A stretch of DNA of 40,000 nucleotides from Geothrix sp. (GCF_030219325.1 NZ_CP126625.1:692857-732856); one strand, 5' to 3'; counted from the stretch's first letter, positions 361 to 22,448 are shown. Numbers and translations are program-made. The notes: generated from the letters alone by a model not told the origin.

Positions 361-364
361 GGTC

Positions 365-8448: not shown

Positions 8449-8506
8449 GCCTAGCGGAGAAGGCCGACCGGCCCCGTCTACGCCGGGGCGCTGGGCCATG
8501 TTAGTC
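8449..8506 (-). repeat. Internally deleted attC remnant (putative distal end of array)
   Basis: GCCTAGCGGAGAAGGCCGACCGGCCCCGTCTACGCCGGGGCGCTGGGCCATGTTAGTC. The first 47 nt or so align with the 5' arm of the array attC (compare 16711-16760), then jump directly to a GTTAGTC core. Confidence 0.4.
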
Positions 8507-8610
8507 CGGGGCAAGTCTGAAGCCAATCCAGGCCATCGGGAAATAGGCGAGGACAAGATCGACGGCCATGAACCAGGCGGGCGCTGGGATGGCTCCGACC
8601 GGGGTCGACG

Positions 8611-9207
8611 CTAGCGGAAGAAGCTGATCGGCTGTTTCGGCATGCGGCGCCGTGAGGCCAGCACCGCCAGGGAGGCGTTCAGGATGAAAACGTAGGCTAC
8701 GAAAGTGGTGCTTTCAAAGGTGTGGGCTTGAATCGACAGAAGGCTCAATCCGAAGCCCAATGCGCTGACAGCATAGGCAATCCAACTCTCGGAGTGGGGA
8801 TGGCGATACGACTTGATGAGGGTCGGTATGCTCGCCAGCACATCGGCCACCAGCGAAAGCAGCAAAGCCAGATTGGGTTTGCTGGTCATGGCCCAGAGGA
8901 TGATGCCGATGATGGCCGCTGCCATCAGGTAGTAGTCGCGGGGCTCGCTTTTCCAATAGGCCTTCTTGTTGAAGAAGGATGCAGCGAAGATAAGCAGCGG
9001 CATAAAGCCGGCGGCGAACGATGCCCACGATATGCCCTGGACGCCTTGCGCCCTTTGGGCCGCAAAGATGACCAAGGGGAAGATGCCCCAGAGCAGCCAT
9101 GTGATGCGGTTGGGCTGTGCCCTGCCGAGGAGGGTTTCGTACAAGTAATAGAAGCCGCCGAGCGAGCCGAGAATGGCACCAGCAATCGCGCAATGGTCGG
9201 GAAGCAT
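8611..9207 (-). CDS. Cassette ORF: polytopic membrane protein (198 aa, about 6 TM)
   Basis: Lies between the degenerate attC 9214-9337 and the remnant 8449-8506. Hydrophobic helices run throughout. Confidence 0.6.
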   Translation of the reverse strand: MLPDHCAIAGAILGSLGGFYYLYETLLGRAQPNRITWLLWGIFPLVIFAAQRAQGVQGISWASFAAGFMPLLIFAASFFNKKAYWKSEPRDYYLMAAAIIGIILWAMTSKPNLALLLSLVADVLASIPTLIKSYRHPHSESWIAYAVSALGFGLSLLSIQAHTFESTTFVAYVFILNASLAVLASRRRMPKQPISFFR

Positions 9208-9213
9208 GGACCG

Positions 9214-9337
9214 GCCTGACGGATGGGGCTGACTGGGCCCACCCGCACCGGGAAGACGCGCGAAGCCCAGACAGGGGGAAGTTGAGAGAGAGCGGAAGGC
9301 AAGGCCGGTGGAGTCTGAGTTGAGCGCAGGGTTAGGC
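9214..9337 (-). repeat. attC site (degenerate, GCCTGAC...GTTAGGC)
   Basis: 124 bp. Keeps the GAGAGAGAGCGGAAGGCA centre and GTTAGGC core, but the arms are diverged. Confidence 0.7.
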
Positions 9338-9369
9338 CTGTGTGGAGGTGTATTGAAAAGCCTTGGTCA

Positions 9370-9738
9370 TCAGGAAATTCTTGGGAGCTTATTGCTTTTA
9401 ATGATTGCGTAACCAATTGTTCCGTATACCGAGCCTTTTTTGGCCCCCTGCCAGTAAACAGCAATTTGTATGGTGTAGTCGAATCGATCGCCGCTTTCCG
9501 TGCCGATTATCCATGACTCGAACGAACCAAGGTCGTTCTCTTGCTTCTCAATGATTGTTGCCTGATAGACCAAGTTCATTCGGTTACTTGGATATTTATG
9601 ATCGTGAAATTTCTTGATGAATTGGTAGGCATCCTCCTTGTGGGCAGCCAGAGTTTGCACTCTCCCACGCGGTGCGAGCCAGGGTGGCTGACATGCCAAT
9701 AGCAGCAATAGAAGGATCGAACCTATGATTTTCATCAT
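9370..9738 (-). CDS. Cassette ORF: secreted/lipoprotein-like protein (122 aa)
   Basis: N-terminal MMKIIGSILLLLLLACQ signal/lipobox. Bounded by attC sites. Confidence 0.65.
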   Translation of the reverse strand: MMKIIGSILLLLLLACQPPWLAPRGRVQTLAAHKEDAYQFIKKFHDHKYPSNRMNLVYQATIIEKQENDLGSFESWIIGTESGDRFDYTIQIAVYWQGAKKGSVYGTIGYAIIKSNKLPRIS

Positions 9739-9771
9739 TGCACCTATGATTGCTCTGGAGTGGGCCTAGGA

Positions 9772-9895
9772 GCCTAACGAATGAAGCTCACCGGCACCGC
9801 CTGCGCCGAAGCGCTGAGCGGAGACGGGAAAGCGGGAAGTTGAGAGAGAGCGGAAGGCAATGCAGGCGGGGTCCGAGTTGAGCGGGAGGTTAGGC
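9772..9895 (-). repeat. attC site (hybrid arms CAC/GTT)
   Basis: 124 bp, GCCTAAC...GTTAGGC. Confidence 0.9.
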
Positions 9896-10270
9896 CTCTG
9901 CTATTGCGGCGATTGAGATTTTGAGACCAGGAATTTTCACTGGCAACTTTGCCCCCTGACGAGCAGGTGGGTTGGAGGGGAACCAACGAAGCCATTCTTC
10001 ATTCATACCTGGGAAGTCTTCCTCGTCTGCGAGGACCACGGTAGCGCTTACGATTTTGTCCAGTGAGCTGCCGGCTTCTTCAAGGATTTCAGCGATGTTG
10101 GTTAGGCACTGGGACGTTTGCTCCTGGATAGTTGCGCCCTGGATTTGGCCAGTGACCGGATCAATAGGAGCGGTGCCCGAAACAAAAATCAGCCCTGCCG
10201 CCTTCACAGCCTGGCTGTAGGTCGCTGGAGGCCTAGCTGCTTTTGGGGTGAAGACAATTTGACGAGGCAT
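9890..10270 (-). CDS. Cassette ORF: RidA/YjgF/L-PSP family protein
   Basis: PPATYSQAVKAAGLIFVSGTAPIDPVTGQ...SLDKIVSATVVLAD...ARQGAKLPV matches the RidA family. The TAA stop lies inside the attC core 9889-9895. ATG 10270 is preferred over 10309. Confidence 0.8.
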   Translation of the reverse strand: MPRQIVFTPKAARPPATYSQAVKAAGLIFVSGTAPIDPVTGQIQGATIQEQTSQCLTNIAEILEEAGSSLDKIVSATVVLADEEDFPGMNEEWLRWFPSNPPARQGAKLPVKIPGLKISIAAIAEA

Positions 10271-10321
10271 GTCAGCTCCTACGGATGAATCACAAGGAAA
10301 CTGGACCAATCTTGGGAAGAG

Positions 10322-10445
10322 GCCTAACGAATGAAGCTAAGCGGCCACGCCTGCACCGAGGCGATGAGCGGAGCCGAGATAGCAAAATGCTGAGAGAGAG
10401 CGGAAGGCAGAGCAGGCGGGGTCCGACTTGAGCGGAGGGTTAGGC
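10322..10445 (-). repeat. attC site (subtype A, arm triplet AAG/CTT)
   Basis: 124 bp, GCCTAAC...GTTAGGC. Confidence 0.9.
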
Positions 10446-10492
10446 GTTTCGGAACTGTCGATCAGGGCTGGAAGGGGGCATTACTAGCGCAT

Positions 10493-10723
10493 TCATGAGT
10501 GAATGATCTTTCGGAAGTCGATGAGGGCATAGGCAATCATGAAGGCGGAAATCACGAAGACCGAGATCAATTCGAACCAAAACCACAAAGGACGATCTTC
10601 CTTAGAAGTCCAGCCGTATATGTTGTCCCAGACCCGCCCAAGTTTCAGCCAGTAGACACCGACACAGAGCACGACTGCGCCAGCGAACAGGCTAGCCAGG
10701 GCCTTCATTGTCGGGATGCTCAT
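10493..10723 (-). CDS. Cassette ORF: small membrane protein (76 aa, 2 TM)
   Basis: Two hydrophobic helices; fills the cassette between attC sites. Confidence 0.55.
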   Translation of the reverse strand: MSIPTMKALASLFAGAVVLCVGVYWLKLGRVWDNIYGWTSKEDRPLWFWFELISVFVISAFMIAYALIDFRKIIHS

Positions 10724-10728
10724 GAAAC

Positions 10729-10852
10729 GCCTAACGAATGAAGCTCACCGGCCCCGCCTGCACCGAGACGCTGAACGAAGCCGAGGAAGCGAGAAGCTGA
10801 GAGAGAAGGGAAGACAATGCAGGCGGGGCCCGAGTGCAGCACAGGGTTAGGC
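10729..10852 (-). repeat. attC site (subtype B, CAC/GTG)
   Basis: 124 bp, GCCTAAC...GTTAGGC. Confidence 0.9.
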
Positions 10853-10866
10853 CGATGGTTTGCCTA

Positions 10867-11133
10867 TTAACCCTGCTTGAAAAGGTCAACATGAGAGTCT
10901 AGAGCCCCTTGAAGGCCCCAATACGAAGCGATCAATGGTGTACAGAATGAAGATAAGTAATGAATCCAGCGTAGGACGGGAGATCCTGGGGAGTAGTGTT
11001 CAATCAAATAAACGGGAGCCCCAAACAGAAGGCTTACCACAAACCCTGAGACAACTGTTCGCCATAGAAACGACCACCAAATTGTCGCTATAAAGCGTGG
11101 ATGGAATCGCTTTTGCGGGAAGAGCTCAGCCAT
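10867..11133 (-). CDS. Cassette ORF: small membrane protein (88 aa)
   Basis: Hydrophobic helices (IATIWWSFLWRTVVSGFVVSLLFGAPVYLI). Only sizeable ORF in the cassette. Confidence 0.55.
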   Translation of the reverse strand: MAELFPQKRFHPRFIATIWWSFLWRTVVSGFVVSLLFGAPVYLIEHYSPGSPVLRWIHYLSSFCTPLIASYWGLQGALDSHVDLFKQG

Positions 11134-11154
11134 GGGTGTTCCCTTTGGGTAGAG

Positions 11155-11278
11155 GCCTAACGAAGGAAGCTAAGCGGCCACGCCTGCACCGAGACGATGA
11201 GCGGAACCGAGATAGCGAAATGCTGAGAGAGAGCGGAAGGCAATGCAGGCGGGGTCCGACTTGAGCGGAGGGTTAGGC
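11155..11278 (-). repeat. attC site (subtype A)
   Basis: 124 bp, GCCTAAC...GTTAGGC. Confidence 0.9.
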
Positions 11279-11288
11279 AAGCCATGAA

Positions 11289-11735
11289 TCAATGCTTGAG
11301 GTTTATTGGACGGAACAACACAATGACAGCTTTGGATCGCCAACCACGGGTTAGATAACTAGTGCCAACTTGGACTGCTTGGCCATTTGTACTGGCAATG
11401 TTCCAGTCTTGGCTGCCCCCGGCAGAAATCGAGTAATCGATCATTTTCGGAGTATTGGGTATCTGGAATGACATCTTTGTCCTAATGTCGAGCCGGAATT
11501 TCGGTGATGAGAACGACACGCTGCATTTCTCGAGTGATTCGAGCCATCCGTGTACTTCGCTGAGGTCTTCGAGTTCAGAGGAAGGCAAAGCATTCAAGCC
11601 GTCTTCGGACTTCGCTGAAACAGGAAGTCGTTCTGATTTGATTACGAAGTATTCGAATGCAAGCTGATCTGCCCAGGCCGATGAAGAGGCCATGAGTATG
11701 AGCGCAAGGAGGACTGAACGAGGTGATCTGCTCAT
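11289..11735 (-). CDS. Cassette ORF: secreted protein (148 aa)
   Basis: Start ATG 11735 (MSRSPRSVLLALILMASSSAWA signal peptide). The longer ORF to 11804 runs into the attC. Confidence 0.6.
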   Translation of the reverse strand: MSRSPRSVLLALILMASSSAWADQLAFEYFVIKSERLPVSAKSEDGLNALPSSELEDLSEVHGWLESLEKCSVSFSSPKFRLDIRTKMSFQIPNTPKMIDYSISAGGSQDWNIASTNGQAVQVGTSYLTRGWRSKAVIVLFRPINLKH

Positions 11736-11740
11736 TGGTT

Positions 11741-11864
11741 GCCTAACGAATGAAGCTAAGCGGCCACGCCTGCGCCGAGGCGATGAACGAAGCCGAGGTA
11801 GCAAAAGGTTGAGAGAGAGCGGAAGGCAATGCAGGCGGGGTCCGACTTGAGCGGAGGGTTAGGC
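11741..11864 (-). repeat. attC site (subtype A)
   Basis: 124 bp, GCCTAAC...GTTAGGC. Confidence 0.9.
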
Positions 11865-11867
11865 CGA

Positions 11868-12293
11868 TCACAGAGGAGTAGCGGTAGATGAAAGCCTAGT
11901 GAAAGAGGAGACACGACAGAAAATTATTGCCACGACCAGCACTGGTGCCAAACCAATGAACATGACACCGACCGATAACGGCGTGATGAGTGCAATCCAG
12001 ACCAGTACGGATCCAATCACGGTGCTCAGTGAGCGGCGAAAATGGCGCCCTGAGATTCCAAAATGCACGATGGGGCCGACCACTAGACCAATGACCATTG
12101 CCACAGGACACAGAACCGTAAGGACAAACGGATTCGTCAGTGGCTCCAGAAATGGCCCTTTTCGAGCAGCGTCAGTTGCGGGCAGTGAGAACCAGACCAT
12201 CACGACGAAGAAAACAGCTGCAACGAAACTGAAGCCCACGGCGAAAAACATCGTGGCTGGAAGTGGGAGAGGGTTCTCGTCTGGATGGCGCAT
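11868..12293 (-). CDS. Cassette ORF: membrane protein (141 aa, about 4 TM); start uncertain
   Basis: Four hydrophobic helices. ATG 12293 is only 3 nt from the attC core. Confidence 0.6.
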   Translation of the reverse strand: MRHPDENPLPLPATMFFAVGFSFVAAVFFVVMVWFSLPATDAARKGPFLEPLTNPFVLTVLCPVAMVIGLVVGPIVHFGISGRHFRRSLSTVIGSVLVWIALITPLSVGVMFIGLAPVLVVAIIFCRVSSFTRLSSTATPL

Positions 12294-12296
12294 GAG

Positions 12297-12420
12297 GCCT
12301 AACGAATGAAGCTAAGCGGCCACGCCTGCACCGAGGCGCTGAGCGGAGCCGAGATAGCGGAATGCTGAGAGAGAGCAGAAGGCAATGCAGGCGGGGTCCG
12401 ACTTGAGCGGAGGGTTAGGC
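12297..12420 (-). repeat. attC site (subtype A)
   Basis: 124 bp, GCCTAAC...GTTAGGC. Confidence 0.9.
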
Positions 12421-12432
12421 AGCGGCGAAGAC

Positions 12433-12831
12433 TCATGGTTCCGGGATTGCCGGGATTGAATTTCTAAACCAAATAAGGGCCTTAGCGAATGTGTACGGTT
12501 TCTCACTGATTACAATTTGTTGGAATTCGCCTTTGGTCCTCAGAATCGATTCGGAGGTAAGTTTATGGCTTGCCAGATCGCGGTTTAAATGAAAGTAAGC
12601 TACCGCTTCCTTCCCATCCTTATCGTATTGAATTTCAAAGATGTATTCCAAGTCAGCAGATCTGAAAAGACTAATCCCGACGTGATCACATGAACTCACT
12701 TCAGACAAGGTCATTCTGAAAGCCCTAGCCCAGATTTGTAAGTCAGGGGTTATAGGCTCGGGAGGCGTAATTCCATGGAGGGAAAGGCAACAAAATAGGA
12801 ATGAAAATGCAATACATCTAGGTGTTCGCAT
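12433..12831 (-). CDS. Cassette ORF: secreted protein (132 aa)
   Basis: Signal peptide MRTPRCIAFSFLFCCLSLHG. AT-rich codon usage. Confidence 0.6.
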   Translation of the reverse strand: MRTPRCIAFSFLFCCLSLHGITPPEPITPDLQIWARAFRMTLSEVSSCDHVGISLFRSADLEYIFEIQYDKDGKEAVAYFHLNRDLASHKLTSESILRTKGEFQQIVISEKPYTFAKALIWFRNSIPAIPEP

Positions 12832-12862
12832 CCATCCGTCCTTTCATGTGCGATAGTGCGCT

Positions 12863-12985
12863 GCCTAACGAACAAGGCTAACCGGACCGCCTGCGCCTGG
12901 GCGCGGAACGGAGCCGGGAAAGCCAGAGGATGAGAGAGAGCGGAGGACATGGCAGGCGGGGTCCGAGTTGAGCCGAGGGTTAGGG
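12863..12985 (-). repeat. attC site (subtype C, AAC/GTT; core GTTAGGG)
   Basis: 123 bp, GCCTAAC...GTTAGGG. Confidence 0.85.
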
Positions 12986-13099
12986 CGATGTTGGATAGAA
13001 TTCGCCATCATCTCCTCGGACCCTGGCTCGAATGGGGCGGTGGAAACGAGGATAAGGGCAGGGAGATGAAGTCGCATCGAGAGCCCTTACGAGAGAAGT

Positions 13100-13858
13100 T
13101 CAGGGGACTAGATGGACGGTGAAATCCACATGGAGATCATTGTTCATCCAGGGGTCAAGGGCCATGGCCCTAACGGTGATTTCTCGCGGACCATCAAGGA
13201 TAGCTGGGGCAGTGTAAGAAAAGGCCCAATGGGTGCCATCCAATTCGGAAATGAGGACTGTCCCTAATGGGCTGGAAGTCACTTGGGCCGGAATGAGTTC
13301 AAACCACTGCTGAAGGTCTAGGGGGCGAGGATTCAAAGTTACGACAAATTTGGCATTTTCTCCGGGGTGCAGTGTGGCAATGTTTGGAGTGCCACCGTTT
13401 TCAACGGCCAGTGCCTCATACAGCATTGGCGTTGTCTTTTGCTCGACATGAATGGGTATGTTCTGGCTACGCTCCCACAGGTGACTGATGGGGCTTTTCA
13501 CCTCGATGCTGAATTGGACGGTAAGGCCCCCCGTTGGCACCTGGGAGGGCGGAACGTACCAGCCATAGATCGGTAGGAAGTCGCCGCCGAGGTCCACGGG
13601 CTTTCGTTCGATGTCTAGAAGAGTGCCAGGTCCTTCCAGGTGCCAACGGACACCTTCCGACCCCGAAGGGCTCACGCTGAATGCGATAGGAGTCCCATAG
13701 GATCCTTCAGTTGTTGATGTTCCGCCATCCCATCTAAATGAAAGGGTGTTCTCCCCAGAAGGACTCTGAGGGGCGGCATCGCCTGGTGGGAGGCAGGCGA
13801 GGAGAATGGGCAACATAATTACTGGAGAAACCCACATTAGCCTTCGTGATACCTTCAT
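13100..13858 (-). CDS. Cassette ORF: secreted beta-rich protein (252 aa)
   Basis: Signal peptide (MKVSRRLMWVSPVIMLPILLACLPPG). Second ORF of a two-ORF cassette. Confidence 0.65.
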   Translation of the reverse strand: MKVSRRLMWVSPVIMLPILLACLPPGDAAPQSPSGENTLSFRWDGGTSTTEGSYGTPIAFSVSPSGSEGVRWHLEGPGTLLDIERKPVDLGGDFLPIYGWYVPPSQVPTGGLTVQFSIEVKSPISHLWERSQNIPIHVEQKTTPMLYEALAVENGGTPNIATLHPGENAKFVVTLNPRPLDLQQWFELIPAQVTSSPLGTVLISELDGTHWAFSYTAPAILDGPREITVRAMALDPWMNNDLHVDFTVHLVP

Positions 13859-13878
13859 GGCTTCACCGTTACGCCGGG

Positions 13879-13885
13879 GTTAGGC
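13879..13885 (-). repeat. Solo attC core (GTTAGGC) scar between two ORFs
   Basis: An isolated GTTAGGC in the 34-bp spacer between ORFs 13893-14120 and 13100-13858. No attC arms or centre are present. Confidence 0.35.
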
Positions 13886-13892
13886 GCATCTG

Positions 13893-14120
13893 TCATAACC
13901 CCTTGAGGCCCTTGATTAAACCAGGGATTGCGAACCACAATCCAAAACAGGAACCCATGGTGGTAATGAGAATGAAAAGGATGAATTTGTATGGATCTTC
14001 CTTTCGTCTGATTGGATCGCCAATTCGAGATACGAAAATTCCAGAGCGCATCGAGGTAAAACTGAATGCCAATCCAAATACGGCGAAGACGGCCATCAAC
14101 GCTTCGTGGATATGGTTCAT
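13893..14120 (-). CDS. Cassette ORF: small membrane protein (75 aa, 2 TM)
   Basis: Two hydrophobic helices. First ORF of the two-ORF cassette. Confidence 0.5.
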   Translation of the reverse strand: MNHIHEALMAVFAVFGLAFSFTSMRSGIFVSRIGDPIRRKEDPYKFILFILITTMGSCFGLWFAIPGLIKGLKGL

Positions 14121-14125
14121 GTGCG

Positions 14126-14249
14126 GCCTAACGAAAGAAGCTAAGCGGCCACGCCTGCACCGAGGCGATGAGCGGAGCCGAGATAGCGAGCTGCTGAGAG
14201 AGAACGGAAGGCAATGCAGGCGGGGTCCGACTTGAGCGAGGGGTTAGGC
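14126..14249 (-). repeat. attC site (subtype A)
   Basis: 124 bp, GCCTAAC...GTTAGGC. Confidence 0.9.
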
Positions 14250-14259
14250 CGTTAGAAGT

Positions 14260-14724
14260 TCAAAATTTAAACTCTCGGTTGTCGAATTTGAATTCGCGTT
14301 CACGAATTTTCATATCCATCACGAATGCGCGAAATAATGCCCAATAGTGGCTATCGCGATTAATGTTAGTCCAAAAATATTTGCACTCCCAACATCGCAG
14401 TGCGTAGTAACCAAACATGTAATGAGCCAACTGTTTGCGAATTAAACCGGAATTGACAAATAATGCAATTTCTTCAAAAAAACCAAGTAAATCTCGTTTT
14501 GATTTAAACTCCATTTCAGCAAGCTTCGGATCATTCATGTCAATTAAAGAACATAGTTCAAGAAATTCTTCATTCTCTTTGAAACGTTTTCGCAAGGCGA
14601 TAAAGTGTTCAGCACGTTTTTGGGCCCCTTGTATTGTGTATTCAGCCACAGCCTTAACAAGAGTACCAAGGGCTATGATTGTTCCACCAATCGTGGCGAT
14701 ATCCTTCCAGGTATCAAGCGCCAT
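14260..14724 (-). CDS. Cassette ORF: N-terminally anchored helical protein (154 aa)
   Basis: One N-terminal TM helix (IATIGGTIIALGTLVKAV) plus a helical domain. Most AT-rich cassette in the window. Loose resemblance to the DUF4760 architecture (low confidence). Confidence 0.6.
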   Translation of the reverse strand: MALDTWKDIATIGGTIIALGTLVKAVAEYTIQGAQKRAEHFIALRKRFKENEEFLELCSLIDMNDPKLAEMEFKSKRDLLGFFEEIALFVNSGLIRKQLAHYMFGYYALRCWECKYFWTNINRDSHYWALFRAFVMDMKIREREFKFDNREFKF

Positions 14725-14744
14725 AGTGAACTCCTAATGGAACG

Positions 14745-14868
14745 GCCTAACGGAATGAGGTAACCGGCCCCGCCTGCACCGAGGCGATGAGCGGAGCCGA
14801 GGAAGGGGGAAGCTGAGAGAGAGCGGAAGGCAATGCAGGCGGGGTCCGAGTTGAGCGGAAGGTTAGGC
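14745..14868 (-). repeat. attC site (subtype C)
   Basis: 124 bp, GCCTAAC...GTTAGGC. Confidence 0.9.
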
Positions 14869-14922
14869 GTGGGAGGTGCCTTAATTTGTGGACTATTGTG
14901 ATTCACGAATCAGCGGTATGAC

Positions 14923-15156
14923 TCAACTAGTTCCCGACCATTCGCTTGTACAAAGCAAAGCACTTGGTATTTCCGCTATGGCTTCCTGTGGGCCTTCCAC
15001 ATCCCAGATGTGCTCGTAGCCACCTGTTGAATAGTCAGCTACCACCACAGTGGTACCCCATTTGGCCAACCAGGCCATGACCCACTTGTAGTCAGGTGGG
15101 TCTGCTTCATTGGGGGCCATTACCAAAATGGTGGCTCGGCGTAGGGTTGGGAACAT
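14923..15156 (-). CDS. Cassette ORF: small cytoplasmic protein (77 aa)
   Basis: Only ORF of reasonable size in the cassette; no family recognised. Confidence 0.45.
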   Translation of the reverse strand: MFPTLRRATILVMAPNEADPPDYKWVMAWLAKWGTTVVVADYSTGGYEHIWDVEGPQEAIAEIPSALLCTSEWSGTS

Positions 15157-15167
15157 GTTGATTTGAC

Positions 15168-15687: not shown

Positions 15688-15693
15688 GCGGGA

Positions 15694-15820
15694 GCCCTAA
15701 CGAAAGAAGCTAACCGGATCCCGCCGCGGCTGAAACGCTCGGTGGAGCGGCTAGATGGAATTACCAGGGAGAAGGACCCGGCCGCTTGCGGCGGGGTCCG
15801 GGTTGAGCGGAAGGTTAGGC
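15694..15820 (-). repeat. attC site, divergent type
   Basis: GCCCTAAC...GTTAGGC, 127 bp. Arms are related (GCTAACCGG / CCGGGTTGAGC), but the central 60 bp or so is unrelated to the other 20 copies. Confidence 0.75.
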
Positions 15821-16144
15821 AGGGCGTAGCGTTGGATTGAGCGTGGAAACGAGCAACTGAGGCATTGGTAGCTTGCGTAGGGACGAAGCATACCGCCAGG
15901 TGGTGTTGGGCTGAAGGAGAATGCCCTTGGAGTGGCCGAACCGTATTGAAAATGCCGCTGAACGGGATTCGGGGTGCCCACCCCGGCAGGACTGAACCAG
16001 AGCCGCTGGGCGGAGCAGACGATGGATGGTGTTTTGCGGCGCGCCAGAATGAGCGACTGCGTTGAGAAGAAACCTTACGGGGCGATCAAAGAGCCGAGAG
16101 GCGGAATTCAAAGCGAAACCGTTTGAGAGGAGGCCACGGCAGAG

Positions 16145-16268
16145 GCCTAACGGATGAAGCTAAGCGGCCACGCCTGCACCGAGACGATGAGCGGAGCCGG
16201 GATAGCGAAATGCTGAGAGAGAGCGGAAGGCAATGCAGGCGGGGTCCGACTTGAGCGGAGGGTTAGGT
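16145..16268 (-). repeat. attC site (subtype A; core GTTAGGT)
   Basis: 124 bp, GCCTAAC...GTTAGGT. Confidence 0.9.
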
Positions 16269-16288
16269 GGCCCACGCGCAGACTACAA

Positions 16289-16687
16289 CTAGGGAGTCAT
16301 AGAACACTGGAGCGAATCTAATACGAGCAACTCGTTTTGGACCGTGAACCTGAACGTGCAGTTTGAAATATCTTCGTCGTTTGATCGAGTGATTTTGAGT
16401 TCACAGTGCTTAATGCCATTGGTGATCGTGGTTTGCCCAACAATTCGATTCTGACCTACGCCAAAGTAGGCTAGATGCACGCTGAGAATATCTAGGATTT
16501 TGGCAGACCCTTTCTGACCGAAATTACCGCAACAATGGGAACCAGGTGGGAGAGCCGAATTCGAGGCGGCTAGGAGATATCGAAGGACAGCTTGCGTTTC
16601 CTTTGGATTTGATTCATCGGCCTTCGGACGCGCCGTTAGAAAAGAGCAGCAAAGGGTCAAGGCCGGAATCAGGTATTGAACCCTCAT
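16289..16687 (-). CDS. Cassette ORF: secreted protein (132 aa)
   Basis: Signal peptide MRVQYLIPALTLCCSFLTA. Confidence 0.6.
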   Translation of the reverse strand: MRVQYLIPALTLCCSFLTARPKADESNPKETQAVLRYLLAASNSALPPGSHCCGNFGQKGSAKILDILSVHLAYFGVGQNRIVGQTTITNGIKHCELKITRSNDEDISNCTFRFTVQNELLVLDSLQCSMTP

Positions 16688-16710
16688 TTGTAGACTCCTA
16701 TTGGCGGGCC

Positions 16711-16834
16711 ACCTAACGGATGTGGCTAACCGGTCCCGCCTGCGCCGGGGCGCTGAGCGGAGCCGGGGAAGCGAGATGCTGAGAGAGAGCGGGGGCCAAT
16801 GCAGGCGGGGTCCGGGTTGAGCAGAGGGTTAGGC
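16711..16834 (-). repeat. attC site (subtype C; ACCTAAC)
   Basis: 124 bp, ACCTAAC...GTTAGGC. Confidence 0.9.
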
Positions 16835-16847
16835 AGCCAGTCGAGAT

Positions 16848-17234
16848 TTACAGATGTGCATGGCATAGGGCCCTCCCCTCCAATCTACGGTTTGGACAGC
16901 CAGCCCAGGTGCAAGGCTCCTCCGAGAATCCGTTATTGCCAAGCACAAGTAGGAACTGTCGTGTTGAGCGTGCCTTCTGAATGGAAGGAAGTTCATCGGT
17001 TTTGAACGCAAAGCCGGGTTCCAAGTCCTCCTCTGGAAAGACCTCGATGTACCAGCGTTGACCACATAAAGAGCAGCGGTAGTCAGTCGACCCAAAGGCC
17101 AGAGGTGGCTCGAATGGGCCGGTTGGTAGGCCCTCAAAATAATTCTGGAAATTCCTCACACCAGCATCGCTGGTGAATGCGCCGGGGAATTGAGGGTCGA
17201 TTAAGCAAGCTGGGAGTGAATCACAATTACACAT
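16848..17234 (-). CDS. Cassette ORF: Cys-rich cytoplasmic protein (128 aa)
   Basis: MCNCDSLPAC..., CSLCGQRWY, CTWAGCPNRRLEGRALCHAHL at the C-terminus. Possible metal-binding knuckles; no family recognised. Confidence 0.55.
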   Translation of the reverse strand: MCNCDSLPACLIDPQFPGAFTSDAGVRNFQNYFEGLPTGPFEPPLAFGSTDYRCSLCGQRWYIEVFPEEDLEPGFAFKTDELPSIQKARSTRQFLLVLGNNGFSEEPCTWAGCPNRRLEGRALCHAHL

Positions 17235-17238
17235 GGCT

Positions 17239-17362
17239 GCCTAACGAACCAGGCTAACCGGCCCCGCCTGCACCGAGGCGCTGAGCGGAGCCGAGGAAGC
17301 GGGAAGCTGAGAGAGAACGGGAGGCAATGCAGGCGGGGTCCGAGTTGAGCCGAGGGTTAGGC
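17239..17362 (-). repeat. attC site (subtype C)
   Basis: 124 bp, GCCTAAC...GTTAGGC. Confidence 0.9.
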
Positions 17363-17400
17363 CGACGGGAAGGCTTGCTGGTATTGCACCACACACGGGG

Positions 17401-17709
17401 CTAGTCCTCTGCACTAAGCACACAGACAAACTCTAAATCGGAGATAGATTTATGGAGCGGCTTCAGGGGAGCGGTTGAGCCTTTGAGAATATAGAAGTAG
17501 AAAGGGAAATCCTTCATGGATTCGACGAACACCTCGGAATGGTTTTGGACGAACAGAATCTCTGATTGAGCGTGGGAGAACTTGAAATACTCACCACCCC
17601 CGAGATTTAGACCATCTCGTAGCTCCATTCCGTAGTCAGGCAAGCACTCCTGCTTGACCAAAGCGGCTAATTCATTGAAGGTGCGCTCACTTTTTACGAA
17701 CAGCTTCAT
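17401..17709 (-). CDS. Cassette ORF: small cytoplasmic protein (102 aa)
   Basis: Fills the cassette; no signal peptide; no family recognised. Confidence 0.55.
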   Translation of the reverse strand: MKLFVKSERTFNELAALVKQECLPDYGMELRDGLNLGGGEYFKFSHAQSEILFVQNHSEVFVESMKDFPFYFYILKGSTAPLKPLHKSISDLEFVCVLSAED

Positions 17710-17717
17710 GTTTGGCG

Positions 17718-17841
17718 GCCTAACGAATGAAGCTAAGCGGCCCCGCCTGCACCGAGGCGATGAGCGGAGCCGGGATAGCGGAATGCTGAGAGAGAGCGGA
17801 GGGCAATGCAGGCGGGGTCCGACTTGAGCGGAGGGTTAGGC
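17718..17841 (-). repeat. attC site (subtype A)
   Basis: 124 bp, GCCTAAC...GTTAGGC. Confidence 0.9.
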
Positions 17842-17847
17842 TGCCGA

Positions 17848-18369
17848 TCACTTCGAGCGAGGAATGCTTTCAGGGTGAAGGCGCCTCAAAATGTCTTGGA
17901 GATGCCCACCTTTGGGATAGTAGAAATCTACGAACACGCAATTTCCATTTTCAACGGCTACCTGGGGGGTAACAGCCAGACTGCCACGCTTTCCCTTTCT
18001 GTCTCGAGTGAAGACTTCTACCCAATATAAACCCTGCCATTTCCGAATACTTCCAACCATGTATGAAGGGGCTGGATCTTGCGTGTTCAGGAATGGATCA
18101 AAGTCGAGCCCGTCTATCTCCCCTTTCGCAGCTGCTTGAGCCTCTGCGTCTTTCTTCAGCTCTTTAAGAAGGAATGGATGAAATAGCTCAGGCTTTCTTC
18201 TAAGTGCAATGTTCGAAGATGGCTCCTTTTGATCTGCCAATGCAAGCGGAACATACCAGTCGTAAAATCCGGTTACTACTTTTCGAATGAGATCCTCGGT
18301 TGGATCGGCAAAGCAGTTCTGGCCCACGGAGAAGGCCATGATTACCGGAAGGAGGATTGCTCGATTCAT
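17848..18369 (-). CDS. Cassette ORF: secreted protein, DUF3828-like
   Basis: Signal peptide. VVTGFYDWYVP and GLDFDPFLNTQDP resemble remembered DUF3828 motifs (moderate or low confidence for the family call). Confidence 0.65.
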   Translation of the reverse strand: MNRAILLPVIMAFSVGQNCFADPTEDLIRKVVTGFYDWYVPLALADQKEPSSNIALRRKPELFHPFLLKELKKDAEAQAAAKGEIDGLDFDPFLNTQDPAPSYMVGSIRKWQGLYWVEVFTRDRKGKRGSLAVTPQVAVENGNCVFVDFYYPKGGHLQDILRRLHPESIPRSK

Positions 18370-18377
18370 GCGAAGCA

Positions 18378-18501
18378 GCCTAACGAATGAAGCTCACCGG
18401 CCCCGCCTGCACCGAGGCGCTGAGCGAAGCCGAGGAAGCAGGAAGATGAGAGAGAGCGGAAGGCAATGCAGGCGGGGTCCGAGTGGAGCGGAGGGTTAGG
18501 C
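18378..18501 (-). repeat. attC site (subtype B)
   Basis: 124 bp, GCCTAAC...GTTAGGC. Confidence 0.9.
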
Positions 18502-18528
18502 GGCGGGACCGGAGTTCGGGTTTGATTT

Positions 18529-18819
18529 TCAATCGAGTGATTTCAATAACCTGTTGAAGCCGAAAAATATGGCGGCAGCAGACAAAATCAGCATGGTCGA
18601 GTTTACGCCGACTCCAACATAGAAATCCGATGGATCGTCTGCACGTGAATAGTAGAAGGGGCGCCCCACTTTACTGACCCCCTGATAAACCTGGGTCGAA
18701 ATGCATTCTTTGAGTCGACGCCCAAAAACGAATGCGCCGAATGGACCCGCCGCAAGCGCGAACACAGCAACAGTGAAGCTTTTGGTTGCTCCCGAATCCT
18801 TGATGTTGGTGTCTGCCAT
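18529..18819 (-). CDS. Cassette ORF: small membrane protein (96 aa, 2 TM)
   Basis: Helices FTVAVFALAAGPFGAFVFG and VNSTMLILSAAAIFFGF. Confidence 0.55.
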   Translation of the reverse strand: MADTNIKDSGATKSFTVAVFALAAGPFGAFVFGRRLKECISTQVYQGVSKVGRPFYYSRADDPSDFYVGVGVNSTMLILSAAAIFFGFNRLLKSLD

Positions 18820-18827
18820 TGTTTGGC

Positions 18828-18951
18828 GCCTAACGAATGAAGCTCACCGGCCCCGCCTGCACCGAGGCGTTGAACGAAGCCGAGGAAGCGAGAAGATGAG
18901 AGAGAACGAAAGGCAACGCAGGCGGGGTCCGAGTGCAGCGGAGGGTTAGGC
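18828..18951 (-). repeat. attC site (subtype B)
   Basis: 124 bp, GCCTAAC...GTTAGGC. Confidence 0.9.
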
Positions 18952-19527
18952 GTCGGGGAACAGTTCGGTAGATCCAGACCACCCATCAACATAGAGACCG
19001 AATGCATCTTCAGGTGGAATCGCCTGGGTAAGGATTGTTTTTATTTGGATGACAGTTTCAACGGCACGTTTTGCGTTGGCGAGAGTAACTTGCTTTTCAA
19101 GCTTAGACTCTGGCATATCAAATAAACGCTTATCATGTTGTTCTTGAGTAAGTGTAACTTCTTCAACTACATTTTCAGGTTTTGCATGTGCAATCTGATT
19201 ACGGAATTTGATTAACCAACGAGCCGATACCCAAGGTTCAGATTCCTTGGTGAATTCGATATTCAGATGCTTGGTTAGCAGACGAAGTTTTGCTATCGGG
19301 GAGCCACTTTCAAAGTCTTGCCAATCTAGAATTATTCTCTCACCTATGGTGTTACACAATGATTCAACCGCGAGGGAAGAGAATGTAATGGCTACAAGCA
19401 TGTTGTACATATAGCCTGGGCTCTTTTGTTCTGCTGCCTCGCATGCTCGAAAGGCAGTGCTGATTAACATGTGGTGAGCGGAAAAGGGCCGCTCTTGCTT
19501 GCGCTTCAACATGCGTGGCTTGGTCAT
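18946..19527 (-). CDS. Cassette ORF: all-helical protein with HEPN-type Rx4H motif (193 aa)
   Basis: WLIKFRNQIAHAKP, with RNQIAH encoded at 19186-19203 (CGT AAT CAG ATT GCA CAT on the minus strand). TAA stop lies inside the attC core 18945-18951. Confidence 0.6.
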   Translation of the reverse strand: MTKPRMLKRKQERPFSAHHMLISTAFRACEAAEQKSPGYMYNMLVAITFSSLAVESLCNTIGERIILDWQDFESGSPIAKLRLLTKHLNIEFTKESEPWVSARWLIKFRNQIAHAKPENVVEEVTLTQEQHDKRLFDMPESKLEKQVTLANAKRAVETVIQIKTILTQAIPPEDAFGLYVDGWSGSTELFPDA

Positions 19528-19532
19528 GAGAC

Positions 19533-19656
19533 GCCTAACGAATGAAGCTAAGCGGCCACGCCTGCACCGAGACGATGAGCGGAGCCGAGATAGCGAAATG
19601 TTGAGAGAGAGCGGAAGGCAATGCAGGCGGGGTCCGACTTGAGCGGAGGGTTAGGC
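19533..19656 (-). repeat. attC site (subtype A)
   Basis: 124 bp, GCCTAAC...GTTAGGC. Confidence 0.9.
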
Positions 19657-19681
19657 AACCGGAGCGTTTGCCCAAAGTGTA

Positions 19682-20098
19682 CTAATAAATTTTACGACCA
19701 TGTTCGCCCCATGTGGTTTTTTCGAACCGCCTGTTTTGGAATCGGACCATTCCATCGCCCAATTCCACCTCTTCTGTTTTGAGGTCAAAGACCTGGCCGT
19801 TTGGACTTAGGAAGAGAATCTTCCTTTGTTTGAGTTTAGATGTGGTCGCGTCGAGGATGAATATCGAGTTGTCTCGGTACGAATACCCCTCGTATTTGAA
19901 CCCATCCATCCCGAAGCCGAACTCATCAGTAAAATTACTTTCCCATAAATTGGTATTTGGCCGGTCTGGGTGGCTCTTGGTGAGCCCGATCGATTTACGG
20001 TCATGGAGGTCGAAGGATTTATTGCAGGAGACACACAATGCTGTGATTGCTATTACCGGAATCGCGATCGAGCATTGGCGTTCGTGAAATGTCATCAT
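19682..20098 (-). CDS. Cassette ORF: putative lipoprotein (138 aa)
   Basis: Signal/lipobox-like IAIPVIAITALCVSC. Confidence 0.6.
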   Translation of the reverse strand: MMTFHERQCSIAIPVIAITALCVSCNKSFDLHDRKSIGLTKSHPDRPNTNLWESNFTDEFGFGMDGFKYEGYSYRDNSIFILDATTSKLKQRKILFLSPNGQVFDLKTEEVELGDGMVRFQNRRFEKTTWGEHGRKIY

Positions 20099-20118
20099 GG
20101 CACTCCACTCAATGGGTT

Positions 20119-20242
20119 GCCTAACGAATGAAGCTAAGCGGCCACGCCTGCACCGAGACGGTGAACGGAGCCGTGATAGCGAAATGCTGAGAGAGAGCGG
20201 AAGGCAATGCAGGCGGGGTCCGACTTGAGCGAGAGGTTAGAC
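20119..20242 (-). repeat. attC site (subtype A; core GTTAGAC)
   Basis: 124 bp, GCCTAAC...GTTAGAC. Confidence 0.85.
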
Positions 20243-20257
20243 GCCCAGTCGAGATGT

Positions 20258-20722
20258 TCATACAACCGGTATTTCAGGCCAGAGTGTAGATCGAAAGGCT
20301 TTGATGGACACGCCATATGGTAGGGCAATACCTTCGCTACCTTTAAGGAAACGCCAAAGCGGGGCCTTGCCTGGACGCCTTGAGGCGGAATTCGGCCCCT
20401 CCTCTATGATTGGAACCGATTCAATCAGGATGGAATCGTTGGCAGGAACCCGAACGAGTGTGAATTGAGTTAGCCCAGGCAGTGCGGAGAGCCAACGATC
20501 AAAATCAGCCTCTGGAATCGAAACCGACACACGAACGAATTCCGGTTTTTGATTCGCCCCCAGAGAAACTTGAAGCAGGATGTCGGTAGAGCAAACCCCG
20601 TTCATTGGGACTTGGAACCAATGAATTGCGACAGCCTTGCCCTTGATAACCCTTGTTTCTGTTTCACCACAACTGCCGATATGGCAGACGATGACAGTAA
20701 GGAATAGGGCGAGTGGTCTCAT
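20258..20722 (-). CDS. Cassette ORF: secreted/lipoprotein-like protein (154 aa)
   Basis: Signal peptide MRPLALFLTVIVCHIGSC. Confidence 0.6.
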   Translation of the reverse strand: MRPLALFLTVIVCHIGSCGETETRVIKGKAVAIHWFQVPMNGVCSTDILLQVSLGANQKPEFVRVSVSIPEADFDRWLSALPGLTQFTLVRVPANDSILIESVPIIEEGPNSASRRPGKAPLWRFLKGSEGIALPYGVSIKAFRSTLWPEIPVV

Positions 20723-20726
20723 GGGC

Positions 20727-20850
20727 GGCTAACGAATGAAGCTCACCGGCCCCGCCTGCACCGAGGCGCTGAACGAAGCCGAGGAAGCGAGAAGCTGAGA
20801 GAGAACGGAAGGCAATGCAGGCGGGGTCCGAGTGCAGCGCAAGGTTAGGG
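20727..20850 (-). repeat. attC site (subtype B; GGCTAAC...GTTAGGG)
   Basis: 124 bp. attC of the first (attI-proximal) cassette. Confidence 0.9.
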
Positions 20851-20853
20851 CGA

Positions 20854-21201
20854 TCAATAGGGTTTGATTTGATTCCATTCTTTGCGCTTGTATCGGGACC
20901 ACATAGAACGAGCAATTATGAAGCGTGTGCCAAAAAATGTGAGGAGGAGTACGGCCGCGACTGCAGGTGTTGTCCGCCAAGGCCTAACAAGGTACCCGAC
21001 AAGTAAAGCTGTAGCTAACCCACCTAGAAAACTGGACCAGACAAGAGTTGTTAGCTCGCCATAGAGAATCCCAGCACGAGCCGCCAGGTCATTTTCTTCA
21101 TTCCATCCCGGCCGCCAAAAAACCAATTCACCGGCAATCGCCGAGAACCGTCTTGCTGGCTTAATGCCCGGTGATGTGATGTAGCGGTGCTCGAATGGCA
21201 T
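20854..21201 (-). CDS. First cassette ORF: membrane protein (115 aa, 2 TM)
   Basis: Helices LTTLVWSSFLGGLATALLVGYLV and AVAAVLLLTFFGTRFII. Its start lies 7 nt from the attI crossover core. Confidence 0.55.
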   Translation of the reverse strand: MPFEHRYITSPGIKPARRFSAIAGELVFWRPGWNEENDLAARAGILYGELTTLVWSSFLGGLATALLVGYLVRPWRTTPAVAAVLLLTFFGTRFIIARSMWSRYKRKEWNQIKPY

Positions 21202-21207
21202 CGAGAG

Positions 21208-21415
21208 CCCTAACTAGTAATTGGACGACGGGGTGGGGGTGGGGTGGAGTTCGCCTATTCGGGAGACGGGGGGGAGCTGGTTGGGTTCGGTCGGTGGGGG
21301 GATAGGCGAACTGCGGAGGGGGCTTGACTGGCGAAAAAAAAGCGATAGATTGTTGTATCTCGGGGAGATAAGGAGGGCTTAGGTCGTCCTTAGTTTACTG
21401 CAATAGGCGAACTGC
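21208..21415 (-). promoter_or_regulatory. attI region (crossover core GTTAGGG plus three ATAGGCGAAC motifs)
   Basis: CCCTAAC at 21208-21214 equals GTTAGGG on the cassette strand, at the junction with cassette 1. GTTCGCCTAT lies at 21249-21258 (inverted), and ATAGGCGAACTGC at 21302-21314 and 21403-21415. The extent of attI is inferred. Confidence 0.6.
21324..21351 (+). promoter_or_regulatory. Candidate sigma70-type promoter for intI
   Basis: TTGACT (21324-21329), 16-nt A-rich spacer, TAGATT (21346-21351). Sits about 85 nt upstream of the intI ATG. Confidence 0.4.
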
Positions 21416-21434
21416 AAGGGCGGGGCGGCGGGGC

Positions 21435-22448
21435 ATGGTGAACCTGAATAGGCAGACCGGTGGAAGGCGGATGGAGGGCCCCCATTCGAGCCCGCCCCGG
21501 CTGTTCGACCTGGTGCGCGAAGCCATCCGGATCCGGCACTACAGCTTGCGGACCGAGGATGCCTACGTGGACTGGGCGCGCCGCTTCATCCTGTTCCACG
21601 GGAAGCGGCACCCGCGCGACCTGGGGGCGCCGGAGGTGCAGGCCTTCCTCTCCCACCTGGCCGTCGACCGGCGGGTGGCGGCCTCCACCCAGAACCAGGC
21701 GAAGGCCGCCCTGATCTTCCTCTACAAGGAGGTGCTGGCCGTCGACCTGCCCTGGCTGGCGGACGTGGTGCATGCCAAGCGGCAGCCCAGGCTGCCGGTG
21801 GTCCTGACGCCCGCGGAGGTGCGCGTCCTCCTGGACCAGATGGAGGGCGTGATGGGCCTGGTGGCGCGGCTGCTCTACGGCACGGGCATGCGGCTGATGG
21901 AAGGGCTGCGGCTGAGGGTGAAGGATCTGGATTTCGTGGGGCGGGAGCTGGTGGTCCGCGAGGGGAAGGGCGGCAAGGACCGGGTGACGGTGCTGCCCGC
22001 CAGTCTGGTGGCCCCGCTGCGCGCGCACCTGGAGCAGGTGCGGACCCTGCACGCCTCGGACCTGGCCGAGGGCTTCGGCGAGGTCCTCCTGCCCGACGCC
22101 CTGGCCTCGAAGTACCCGGCCGCCGCGCGGCAGTGGGGGTGGCAGTGGGTCTTCCCCTCGGCCCTGCGCTCGGCGGATCCGCGCACGGGTGCCATCCGCC
22201 GCCACCACCTGCACGCGGAGAGCGTCCAGAAGGCCGTGCGGCTGGCCGCCCGCGCCGGCGAGCTGGCCAAGCCGGTGACGCCGCACGTGCTGCGGCACAG
22301 CTTCGCCACGCACCTGCTGGCGGCGGGCCACGACATCCGCACGGTGCAGGAGCTGCTGGGGCACGCGGACGTGGAGACGACCATGATCTACACGCACGTG
22401 CTGAACCGCGGCGGCCGCGGCGTGGCGAGCCCGCTCGACGGGCTGTAG
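21435..22448 (+). CDS. intI: Integron integrase IntI (tyrosine recombinase)
   Basis: [83 protein letters not shown] (integron-specific insertion), [52 protein letters not shown]. All catalytic R..HxxR..H..Y positions are present. Start is 21435 or 21471. Confidence 0.92.

Follow-up and report, generated by a model that had tools for sequence, protein, structure and literature searches.

The integron described here occupies positions 8449–22448 of a 40,000-nucleotide stretch of chromosomal DNA (GCF_030219325.1, NZ_CP126625.1:692857-732856), referred to below as the window, whose host is Geothrix, a soil and freshwater genus of the Holophagaceae (Acidobacteriota). We are highly confident that a Geothrix species has in this interval a complete sedentary chromosomal integron, made up of an intact integrase gene (intI), an attI site and an array of 22 cassettes. 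Its closest described counterparts are the Vibrio cholerae superintegron, the chromosomal integrons of Xanthomonas, a class of attC sites modelled from Acidobacteria and, through its integrase, the class 1 and betaproteobacterial integrons.

The Geothrix integron exhibits considerable similarities to the Vibrio cholerae superintegron (IntIA/IntI4; Vibrio cholerae repeats, VCR), as both have a chromosomal sedentary platform, a divergent intI and homogeneous attC sites of near-equal length, as well as cassettes that are short, apparently promoterless and mostly unannotatable, and the Geothrix IntI aligns end to end with VchIntIA. Lengths of 120–129 nt are typical of the attC sites of such integrons (PMC5371416), and those of Geothrix measure about 124 nt. 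There are also differences: Geothrix belongs to the phylum Acidobacteriota, its array of 22 cassettes is about ten times smaller, no toxin–antitoxin cassettes were recognised in it, and its gap in guanine plus cytosine (GC) content to the host is much larger.

The integrons of Xanthomonas were reportedly described by Gillings et al. in 2005 as having a genus-wide fixed site, homogeneous attC sites and cassettes of lower GC, and many Xanthomonas intI genes are inactivated. The Geothrix integron resembles them in its genus-wide platform, its fixed site near housekeeping genes of a high-GC host, its homogeneous attC sites and its strain- or species-specific cassettes with GC below that of the genome (see also 10.1101/2025.06.18.660453); it differs in insertion locus and phylum, and its intI is intact.

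Chromosomal integrons in Acidobacteria are already known, because Ghaly et al. (2021) used 120 chromosomal attC sites of Acidobacteria to model a class that is conserved and specific to the taxon (PMC8352920), with a model of 106 consensus positions and 30% sensitivity. Compared by description, the Geothrix sites exemplify that conservation at the level of a genus or family; neither the text of that paper (PMC8352920) nor those of its supplementary files that were searched name Geothrix or Holophaga. A literature search for a described Geothrix integron returned none, the sole paper containing both words being a sewage community survey. The integrase is 57% identical to IntI1 and 66–72% identical to betaproteobacterial chromosomal IntI, and the attC model built here finds the approximately 60-nt sites of those integrons. 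Unlike class 1, however, the Geothrix IntI falls under the cutoff of the NF011946 model and has no Tn402-type context, and unlike class 1 and betaproteobacterial integrons, it has long, uniform attC sites in place of short, heterogeneous ones. Overall, the Geothrix element is an ordinary, well-preserved sedentary chromosomal integron from an under-described lineage, and it suggests no new mechanism.

Integrase, attI and attC sites

The recombinase encoded next to the array is an integron integrase.

21435–22448, plus strand: intI, integron integrase gene, 337 aa, intact (TIGR02249 and alignment to VchIntIA, PDB 2a3v)

The NCBIfam integron-integrase model TIGR02249 scores 463.5 bits on this protein against a cutoff of 265, and the Vibrio cholerae integron integrase of known crystal structure (VchIntIA, PDB 2a3v) aligns with residues 27–335 (E 9e-83) across both the IntI-specific insertion (WGWQWVFPS...DPRTG..RRHH) and the positions of the catalytic R, K, HxxR, H and Y. 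A preliminary description of the window had taken this 337-aa plus-strand open reading frame (ORF) for a tyrosine recombinase carrying an integron-specific stretch, and had proposed a comparison with IntI1, VchIntIA and XerC/D; the stretch is indeed present, the catalytic residues align to 2a3v, and the comparison separates the protein clearly from the Xer family. The XerC and XerD models score 136 and 134 bits, far short of their cutoffs of 335 and 330, and a XerC/XerD chromosome dimer resolvase is ruled out by these equivalog cutoffs and by the presence of the IntI insertion. The equivalog model NF011946, labelled only 'integron integrase' and presumably of IntI1 type, scores 386 bits against a cutoff of 435, and identity to IntI1 is 57%. 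The gene has a host-like GC content at third codon positions (GC3) of 0.96. A survey of IntI loci that took one genome per species gave identities of 92–93% to the closest Geothrix/Holophagaceae metagenome-assembled genomes (MAGs), 76–80% to named Geothrix species, 74–75% to Holophaga and 72% or less to Proteobacteria, with 66–72% for Azoarcus, Rubrivivax, Acidovorax-group and related genomes; judged by these sequence identities, IntI tracks taxonomy.

Between intI and the first cassette lie the attI core and a conserved spacer, which hold the following features.

21208–21214, minus strand: attI core GTTAGGG (CCCTAAC on the plus strand), from the sequence and from the start of similarity to nine Geothrix loci
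21209–21434, no strand assigned: conserved platform spacer with G-rich tracts (alignment of ten Geothrix loci)
21249–21258, minus strand: motif ATAGGCGAAC, first copy, in inverted orientation some 40 bp from the crossover (exact 10-mer)
21302–21311, plus strand: motif ATAGGCGAAC, second copy, immediately upstream of the –35 hexamer (exact 10-mer)
21324–21351, plus strand: candidate intI promoter TTGACT-16-TAGATT (consensus scan; conserved block)
21403–21412, plus strand: motif ATAGGCGAAC, third copy, lying between the –10 hexamer and the start of intI (exact 10-mer)

The lone GTTAGGG core expected at the junction adjoining intI is present at 21208–21214, read on the cassette strand, and the predicted crossover falls between 21213 and 21214. 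DNA similarity between the window and nine other Geothrix loci begins at 21202–21209, and in seven of the nine at exactly 21209, the base that adjoins the predicted crossover in CCCTAA/C (the slash marking the crossover); in the alignment of ten Geothrix loci, columns are kept from CCTAAC onward and the cassette side is without relatedness. Because the similarity between genomes starts within a few bases of the predicted crossover, the position of attI is independently confirmed, and on this sequence comparison 21208–21214 is the attI core at the first-cassette junction.

The block GCGAAAAAAAAGCGATAGATT at the candidate intI promoter, TTGACT-16-TAGATT, is conserved in ten Geothrix platforms. 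The motif ATAGGCGAAC has three exact copies, all of them in the 226-bp spacer between attI and intI and none elsewhere in the 40 kb; its cores are kept in nine other Geothrix platforms, with G-rich tracts separating the copies, which may be accessory IntI sites or the operator of a regulator.

On the other side of attI, repeat finding yields 20 copies of a family of about 134 nt together with related shorter families, and manual extraction combined with a covariance-model scan delimits 21 full attC sites of 123–126 nt, bounded by RYYTAAC ... GTTAGRN (usually GCCTAAC and GTTAGGC, or near variants) and having a mean column identity of 87%. The 21 repeats of about 124 bp with attC boxes that had been noted before are thus recovered in full, and a 22nd, decayed site at 8449–8578 is added to them. 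In the list, bit scores come from a covariance model built from the 21 sites of the window, and pfold (median 0.78) is the probability of the recombinogenic attC fold; all 22 sites in the window lie on one strand.

20727–20850, plus strand: attC 1 (136.4 bits; pfold 0.25)
20119–20242, plus strand: attC 2 (144.1 bits; pfold 0.18)
19533–19656, plus strand: attC 3 (155.5 bits; pfold 0.78)
18828–18951, plus strand: attC 4 (146.2 bits; pfold 0.83)
18378–18501, plus strand: attC 5 (148.5 bits; pfold 0.87)
17718–17841, plus strand: attC 6 (151.8 bits; pfold 0.78)
17239–17362, plus strand: attC 7 (141.5 bits; pfold 0.83)
16711–16834, plus strand: attC 8 (130.5 bits; pfold 0.49)
16145–16268, plus strand: attC 9 (150.6 bits; pfold 0.74)
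15695–15820, plus strand: attC 10, 126 nt, divergent terminal structure (94.2 bits; pfold 0.69)
15168–15291, plus strand: attC 11 (135.6 bits; pfold 0.83)
14745–14868, plus strand: attC 12, L box weakened (136.6 bits; pfold 0.006)
14126–14249, plus strand: attC 13 (148.5 bits; pfold 0.77)
12863–12985, plus strand: attC 14, 123 nt (112.1 bits; pfold 0.79)
12297–12420, plus strand: attC 15 (153.1 bits; pfold 0.78)
11741–11864, plus strand: attC 16 (150.2 bits; pfold 0.78)
11155–11278, plus strand: attC 17 (151.1 bits; pfold 0.74)
10729–10852, plus strand: attC 18 (141.6 bits; pfold 0.90)
10322–10445, plus strand: attC 19 (150.6 bits; pfold 0.78)
9772–9895, plus strand: attC 20 (136.3 bits; pfold 0.91)
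9214–9337, plus strand: attC 21, partly decayed, GCCTGAC core (106.3 bits; pfold 0.001)
8449–8578, plus strand: attC 22, terminal, decayed, core GCCTAGC (20.5 bits, E 1e-3)

In the predicted single-stranded fold, a site has an R box paired over 7 bp and then an unpaired spacer, which measures 7 nt on the 5' arm but 5 nt on the 3' arm; beyond this come an L-box stem, whose single-base bulges are all on the 3' arm, and a large terminal structure. At every one of the 21 sites the purine-rich plus strand gives the more stable fold (median –24.2 kcal/mol, against –21.1 kcal/mol for the minus strand). With the bulges on the plus strand's 3' arm and the ORFs on the minus strand, the published attC model would make the plus strand the bottom (recombining) strand, an assignment with which stability and purine richness both fit. 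The most divergent site is attC 10, whose DNA fold reaches –32.3 kcal/mol (z –3.9). The site attC 21 folds no better than its shuffles, and the recognisable part of attC 22 is the R'/L' arm in its first 48 nt (8449–8496), over which it matches repeat family D2.

The repeats take the attC fold, with support from covariation. Among the sites of the window, 97% of cells pair and six pairs carry compensatory changes, against at most 46% pairing in a partner-slid control; for 149 Holophagaceae attC sites, taken from 14 sources, the figures are 96.4% of cells paired and compensatory changes in 14 of 25 pairs. The same model also picks up the attC sites of about 60 nt in betaproteobacterial arrays, every such hit being on the same strand and upstream of intI; this cross-detection is an independent check that the modelled architecture is that of attC.

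Since the repeats are imperfect palindromes at regular spacing, one might take them for an unrelated palindromic element, REP (repetitive extragenic palindromic)- or MITE (miniature inverted-repeat transposable element)-like or CRISPR (clustered regularly interspaced short palindromic repeat)-like, that stands beside a tyrosine recombinase by coincidence. We consider this scarcely credible, as the spacing is 407–1264 bp with one oriented ORF per unit, the RYYYAAC/GTTRRRY boxes are present, the bulges are confined to one arm, the 22 sites occur on one strand and nowhere else in the 40 kb, 14 or more related loci carry such sites only upstream of intI, and the recombinase has the IntI-specific domain. 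A second integron or a stray attC cluster elsewhere in the window was also sought and rejected, as a covariance-model scan with filters off gave only sub-threshold noise outside 8449–20850.

In this sedentary integron, IntI is read rightward from 21435 beside a double-stranded attI with its core at 21208–21214, and 22 promoterless cassettes run leftward from attI on the minus strand, each ending in a 124-nt attC. The plus (bottom) strand of attC would fold into an imperfect hairpin that IntI recognises by shape and not by sequence; recombination of attC with attC would excise a cassette as a circle, and recombination of attI with attC would re-insert the circle at the first position, adjoining the platform. 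By analogy with what is known of integrons, recombination would involve a single strand cleaved between the A and C of AAC, the proximal cassettes would be expressed from a platform promoter, and the system would be active in the present strain.

Chromosomal status, sister arrays and cassette turnover

Cury et al. (2016) regard an integron as sedentary if it has more than 19 attC sites or is present in 100% of the genomes of a species (PMC4889954). The Geothrix integron is sedentary by count, with 21 intact attC sites and one decayed, and also by the likeness of its attC sites, given the 87% mean column identity over the 21. The array is embedded between host genes, as follows.

1345–2370, minus strand: rlmF, confirmed in the flank
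7971–8408, minus strand: left flank, SRPBCC/AHSA1-domain gene, outside the integron (PF08327, E 8e-18; common to locus L001)
22561–23901, plus strand: right flank, M48 peptidase gene, outside the integron (PF01435/PF16491)
29652–30764, minus strand: serC, confirmed in the flank

Both rlmF and serC, earlier named as the flanking genes, are therefore present, but they are not the immediate neighbours, which are the SRPBCC/AHSA1 gene and the M48 peptidase gene. The platform and the flank on the intI side are common to nine other Geothrix genomes, in which similarity runs through intI and then, interrupted by lineage-specific sequence, along the side of zincin, serC and serA. In the Geothrix locus L001 it passes through the M48 peptidase gene, and in the other Geothrix loci it resumes downstream of that gene. 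L001 also shares the left flank, where its similarity to the window ends at 8419. No tRNA was found in a scan of the window, which means that the array is not a tRNA-linked island. In the right flank, two neighbouring minus-strand host ORFs, 24301–25164 and 25190–26464, both have at their end a weak match to the SHOCT domain that stays under the Pfam cutoff; large overlapping ORFs occur on both strands of 24301–26464, as is typical of DNA of 70% GC, and gene calls there are uncertain.

A mobile integron, of the class 1–5 type or borne on a transposon and sitting in the chromosome by chance, is very improbable. It would be compatible with the place of IntI in a broad group that includes IntI1 at 57% identity, and with its 386 bits on NF011946. 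However, that score is under the cutoff of 435, the attC sites are homogeneous and number more than 19, and many Geothrix species share the insertion site and the flanks. No transposition genes, and no transposase in particular, were found among the flank ORFs tested. Of the 72,556 plasmid records in PLSDB, none holds a close IntI (the best plasmid IntI is 61% identical) or a copy of the attC family of the window. The proposal of the preliminary description that the integron is sedentary and chromosomal rather than mobile is thus borne out by the more than 19 homogeneous sites, the intI-side flank common to nine genomes and the absence of plasmid copies.

Beyond the shared platform, the arrays diverge. 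The 124-nt attC family, at 125–155 bits, fills the region upstream of intI in all these Geothrix genomes, and Holophaga carries a diverged version with compensatory changes in the upper stem; homologues in other arrays were found for only three of the 23 cassette ORFs. L001, with a 93% identical IntI and the same flanks, differs in its array, which is shorter at only about 4.3 kb and has four matches to the attC model, and its first cassette is cassette 17 of the window (96% identical). By these sequence comparisons, cassette content is replaced almost wholly between related Geothrix genomes, and because the platform is shared while the cassettes are almost all different, we read the locus as a sedentary chromosomal integron with active cassette turnover. 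In a Holophagaceae MAG (L015), attC sites at 1292–1415, 1648–1771 and 9012–9135 score an identical 102.8 bits, two of them 356 bp apart, which suggests duplicated cassettes.

Several observations weigh against a complete integron of this kind. Three sites, at 9214, at 14745 and at the terminal 8449, look poorly recombinogenic. A consensus scan for one promoter type found no sigma-70-like site that could serve as the cassette promoter (Pc) on the cassette strand at 21200–21800. An Rfam scan of the whole window gave 0 hits, Rfam being without an attC family and so offering no curated attC model. Finally, Pfam searches of the cassette ORFs recognised no toxin–antitoxin cassette, a kind of cargo that is common in large chromosomal integrons.

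Some of these features would suit a fossil, that is, an inherited platform and array that no longer recombine, a frozen gene island in which intI has been kept by chance or for another role. The distal sites have decayed (pfold 0.001 at 9214; 20.5 bits at 8449–8578), one attC has been lost with the fusion of two cassettes, and no Pc was detected by the sigma-70 consensus scan. We nevertheless consider a fossil unlikely: intI is full length with every catalytic residue and a GC3 of 0.96, pfold is 0.18 or more at 18 of 21 sites, and decay is restricted to the attI-distal end, as expected of an active integron. Above all, L001, with its 93% identical IntI and the same flanks, has a different array in which the shared cassette stands at another rank, and this difference in array together with the re-ranking requires recent excision and insertion in the lineage.

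For the sedentary, active integron that we favour, the direction of replication is also of interest. Loot et al. (2017) found attC bottom strands on the template for the leading strand in 25 of 30 sedentary integrons, the minority of opposite orientation having at most 22 cassettes (PMC5371416). The GC skew of the plus strand is mildly positive in both flanks of the window, about +0.02 on the left (1–8400) and about +0.06 on the right (22450–40000), and this skew, taken from the 40 kb alone, hints that the Geothrix bottom strands lie on the template for the lagging strand, in the minority orientation; if so, the array's 22 cassettes would stand at the reported maximum for it.

Cassette contents and composition

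The attI site and the 22 attC sites bound 22 cassettes of 407–1263 bp, which carry the following ORFs.

20854–21201, minus strand: cassette 1, 115 aa, two predicted transmembrane (TM) segments, no Pfam match
20258–20722, minus strand: cassette 2, 154 aa, lipobox-like N-terminus
19682–20098, minus strand: cassette 3, 138 aa, hydrophobic N-terminus
18946–19527, minus strand: cassette 4, 193 aa, HEPN-like, invariant R109-N110-x3-H114
18529–18819, minus strand: cassette 5, 96 aa, two TM
17848–18369, minus strand: cassette 6, 173 aa, 38% homologue in the Geothrix alkalitolerans array (L007)
17401–17709, minus strand: cassette 7, 102 aa
16848–17234, minus strand: cassette 8, 128 aa, Cys-rich
16289–16687, minus strand: cassette 9, 132 aa
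15815–16111, minus strand: cassette 10, doubtful 98-aa ORF with TTG start, GC 0.59, no codon-position pattern
15286–15687, minus strand: cassette 11, 133 aa
14923–15156, minus strand: cassette 12, 77 aa
14260–14724, minus strand: cassette 13, 154 aa, DUF4760 (PF15956, E 3e-6, 27.9 bits, cutoff 25)
13893–14120, minus strand: cassette 14, first ORF, 75 aa, two TM, 88% identical homologue in L002
13878–13885, plus strand: attC remnant GGTTAGGC inside fused cassette 14; the L002 homologue has a full attC here
13100–13858, minus strand: cassette 14, second ORF, 252 aa, lipoprotein-like
12433–12831, minus strand: cassette 15, 132 aa
11868–12293, minus strand: cassette 16, 141 aa, four TM
11289–11735, minus strand: cassette 17, 148 aa, signal-peptide-like, 96% identical homologue in L001
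10867–11133, minus strand: cassette 18, 88 aa, TM
10493–10723, minus strand: cassette 19, 76 aa, two TM
9890–10309, minus strand: cassette 20, RidA/L-PSP family (PF01042, E 7.6e-27)
9370–9738, minus strand: cassette 21, 122 aa, lipobox
8611–9207, minus strand: cassette 22, most distal, 198 aa, three TM, GC3 0.77

The longest ORF lies on the minus strand in all 22 inter-site segments (p about 2e-7 under a coin-flip null), in agreement with the earlier statement that the cassette ORFs are all opposite to intI, and most ORFs start 10–40 nt past the upstream recombination core. The estimate of about 22 cassettes likewise holds, with 22 delimited; the fused cassette at 12869–14131 has two ORFs, for a total of 23. 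Cassette 10 (15701–16150), which adjoins the most divergent attC (15695–15820), is without a convincing ORF and is possibly non-coding, and the true start of the cassette 20 protein is probably an internal ATG. A sigma-70 consensus scan of the cassette strand revealed no promoter recurring in the attC sites, counts being equal to the shuffled expectation.

Pfam matches only two of the 23 ORFs, RidA/L-PSP (9890–10309) and DUF4760 (14260–14724), and PADLOC found no match for the ten largest cassette proteins; with 21 of 23 ORFs assigned to no family, the cargo is nearly all unannotatable, as had been claimed, and is the main reservoir of unknowns in the window. By a crude hydropathy and lipobox screen, about half of the ORFs look membrane-bound or exported. 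The cassettes encode real proteins: in the two comparable cassettes, the ratio of nonsynonymous to synonymous substitution rates (dN/dS) is 0.19 (cassette 17 ORF) and 0.07 (first ORF of cassette 14), indicating purifying selection.

The history of cassette 14 can be read from a relative. In Candidatus Geothrix odensensis (L002, 4217–4592), the homologue of its first ORF forms a cassette by itself, complete with a full attC, and the similarity of the window to L002 begins at the remnant box 13878–13885. Because only GGTTAGGC is left of the L002-type attC, cassette 14 (12869–14131) is two cassettes fused, and the position of the break, on the inner edge of the R'' box, points to aberrant action by IntI or to a precise deletion. 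The interval 13756–13885 was also considered as a divergent attC and was ruled out, as it consists of the start region of the 252-aa ORF plus the 8-bp remnant.

The protein of cassette 4 has 103 homologues in an uncharacterised family with an invariant R-N-x3-H motif. HEPN_RiboL-PSP (PF18735) is matched by four of 25 family members (best E 5e-6), the protein of the window itself being unmatched. Its AlphaFold2 (AF2) model has a predicted local distance difference test (pLDDT) value of 95, and the top relevant Foldseek match is the HEPN toxin 7ae6, which is weak (E 0.72, probability 0.60). Because Foldseek against the PDB finds no match at E 0.001 or better, the protein is termed only HEPN-like. 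A 65% homologue (L081, 6001–6612) comes from metagenome contigs of peat or soil, where it forms a cassette adjoining an IntI of 69% identity; past that array, at 7998–10023 of L081, come a gene for an IS91-family (Y2) transposase and one for a second tyrosine recombinase. The RidA/L-PSP cassette (9890–10309) sits in the same array as cassette 4.

In composition, the array stands apart from its host. The AT-richer block of about 13 kb next to intI that had been pointed out before is the array itself, which has 53% GC (about 8.4–21.2 kb) against 69–70% in the flanks. The GC3 of the cassette ORFs is 0.37–0.77 (median about 0.53), versus 0.95–0.98 in intI and the M48, zincin and serC flank genes and 0.79 in the left-flank SRPBCC gene. 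The two attI-distal attC sites are decayed (8449–9337), and the last cassette ORF (8611–9207) has the highest GC3 of the array, 0.77, a combination that would fit long occupancy of the distal end.

That cassettes have lower GC and foreign codon usage is known qualitatively from Vibrio and Xanthomonas. In the Holophagaceae, the GC3 gap between cassettes and host recurs in nine other arrays (among them L002, L007, L011, L015, L016, L020 and L025), and it is also seen in the metagenome integron L081. In one shared cassette pair (dS about 0.9), AT-to-GC differences balance those of the GC-to-AT kind, 15 versus 14; the other shared pair is closer and has too few differing sites for this balance to be judged. 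The balanced differences give no sign of drift toward host composition, despite attC sites that are family-specific. This might suggest that the cassettes form a Holophagaceae-wide pool at a compositional equilibrium of its own, not set by the host, an idea that we hold as tentative and rather doubtful. If the gap goes beyond repeated import, the ORFs may derive from foreign, lower-GC templates to which a lineage-specific process adds attC, or the arrays may mutate under a regime of their own, for instance through repeated exposure as single strands in the absence of GC-biased repair. In the same tentative vein, the high predicted foldability of the attC sites and their possible lagging-strand placement would suit a chromosomal integron of unusual dynamism.

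Meaning for integron biology

The Geothrix locus provides a clean example of an integron outside the Proteobacteria, with an intact integrase and both array boundaries mapped. It can be compared with about ten sister arrays, of which no fewer than four belong to named cultured species (G. alkalitolerans, G. paludis, G. oryzisoli and G. fuzhouensis), which makes Geothrix a usable system for cassette generation and exchange beyond Vibrio and Xanthomonas. In addition, the large and stable GC3 gap makes the origin of cassettes measurable in Geothrix, and it is the size and stability of this gap that merit attention.

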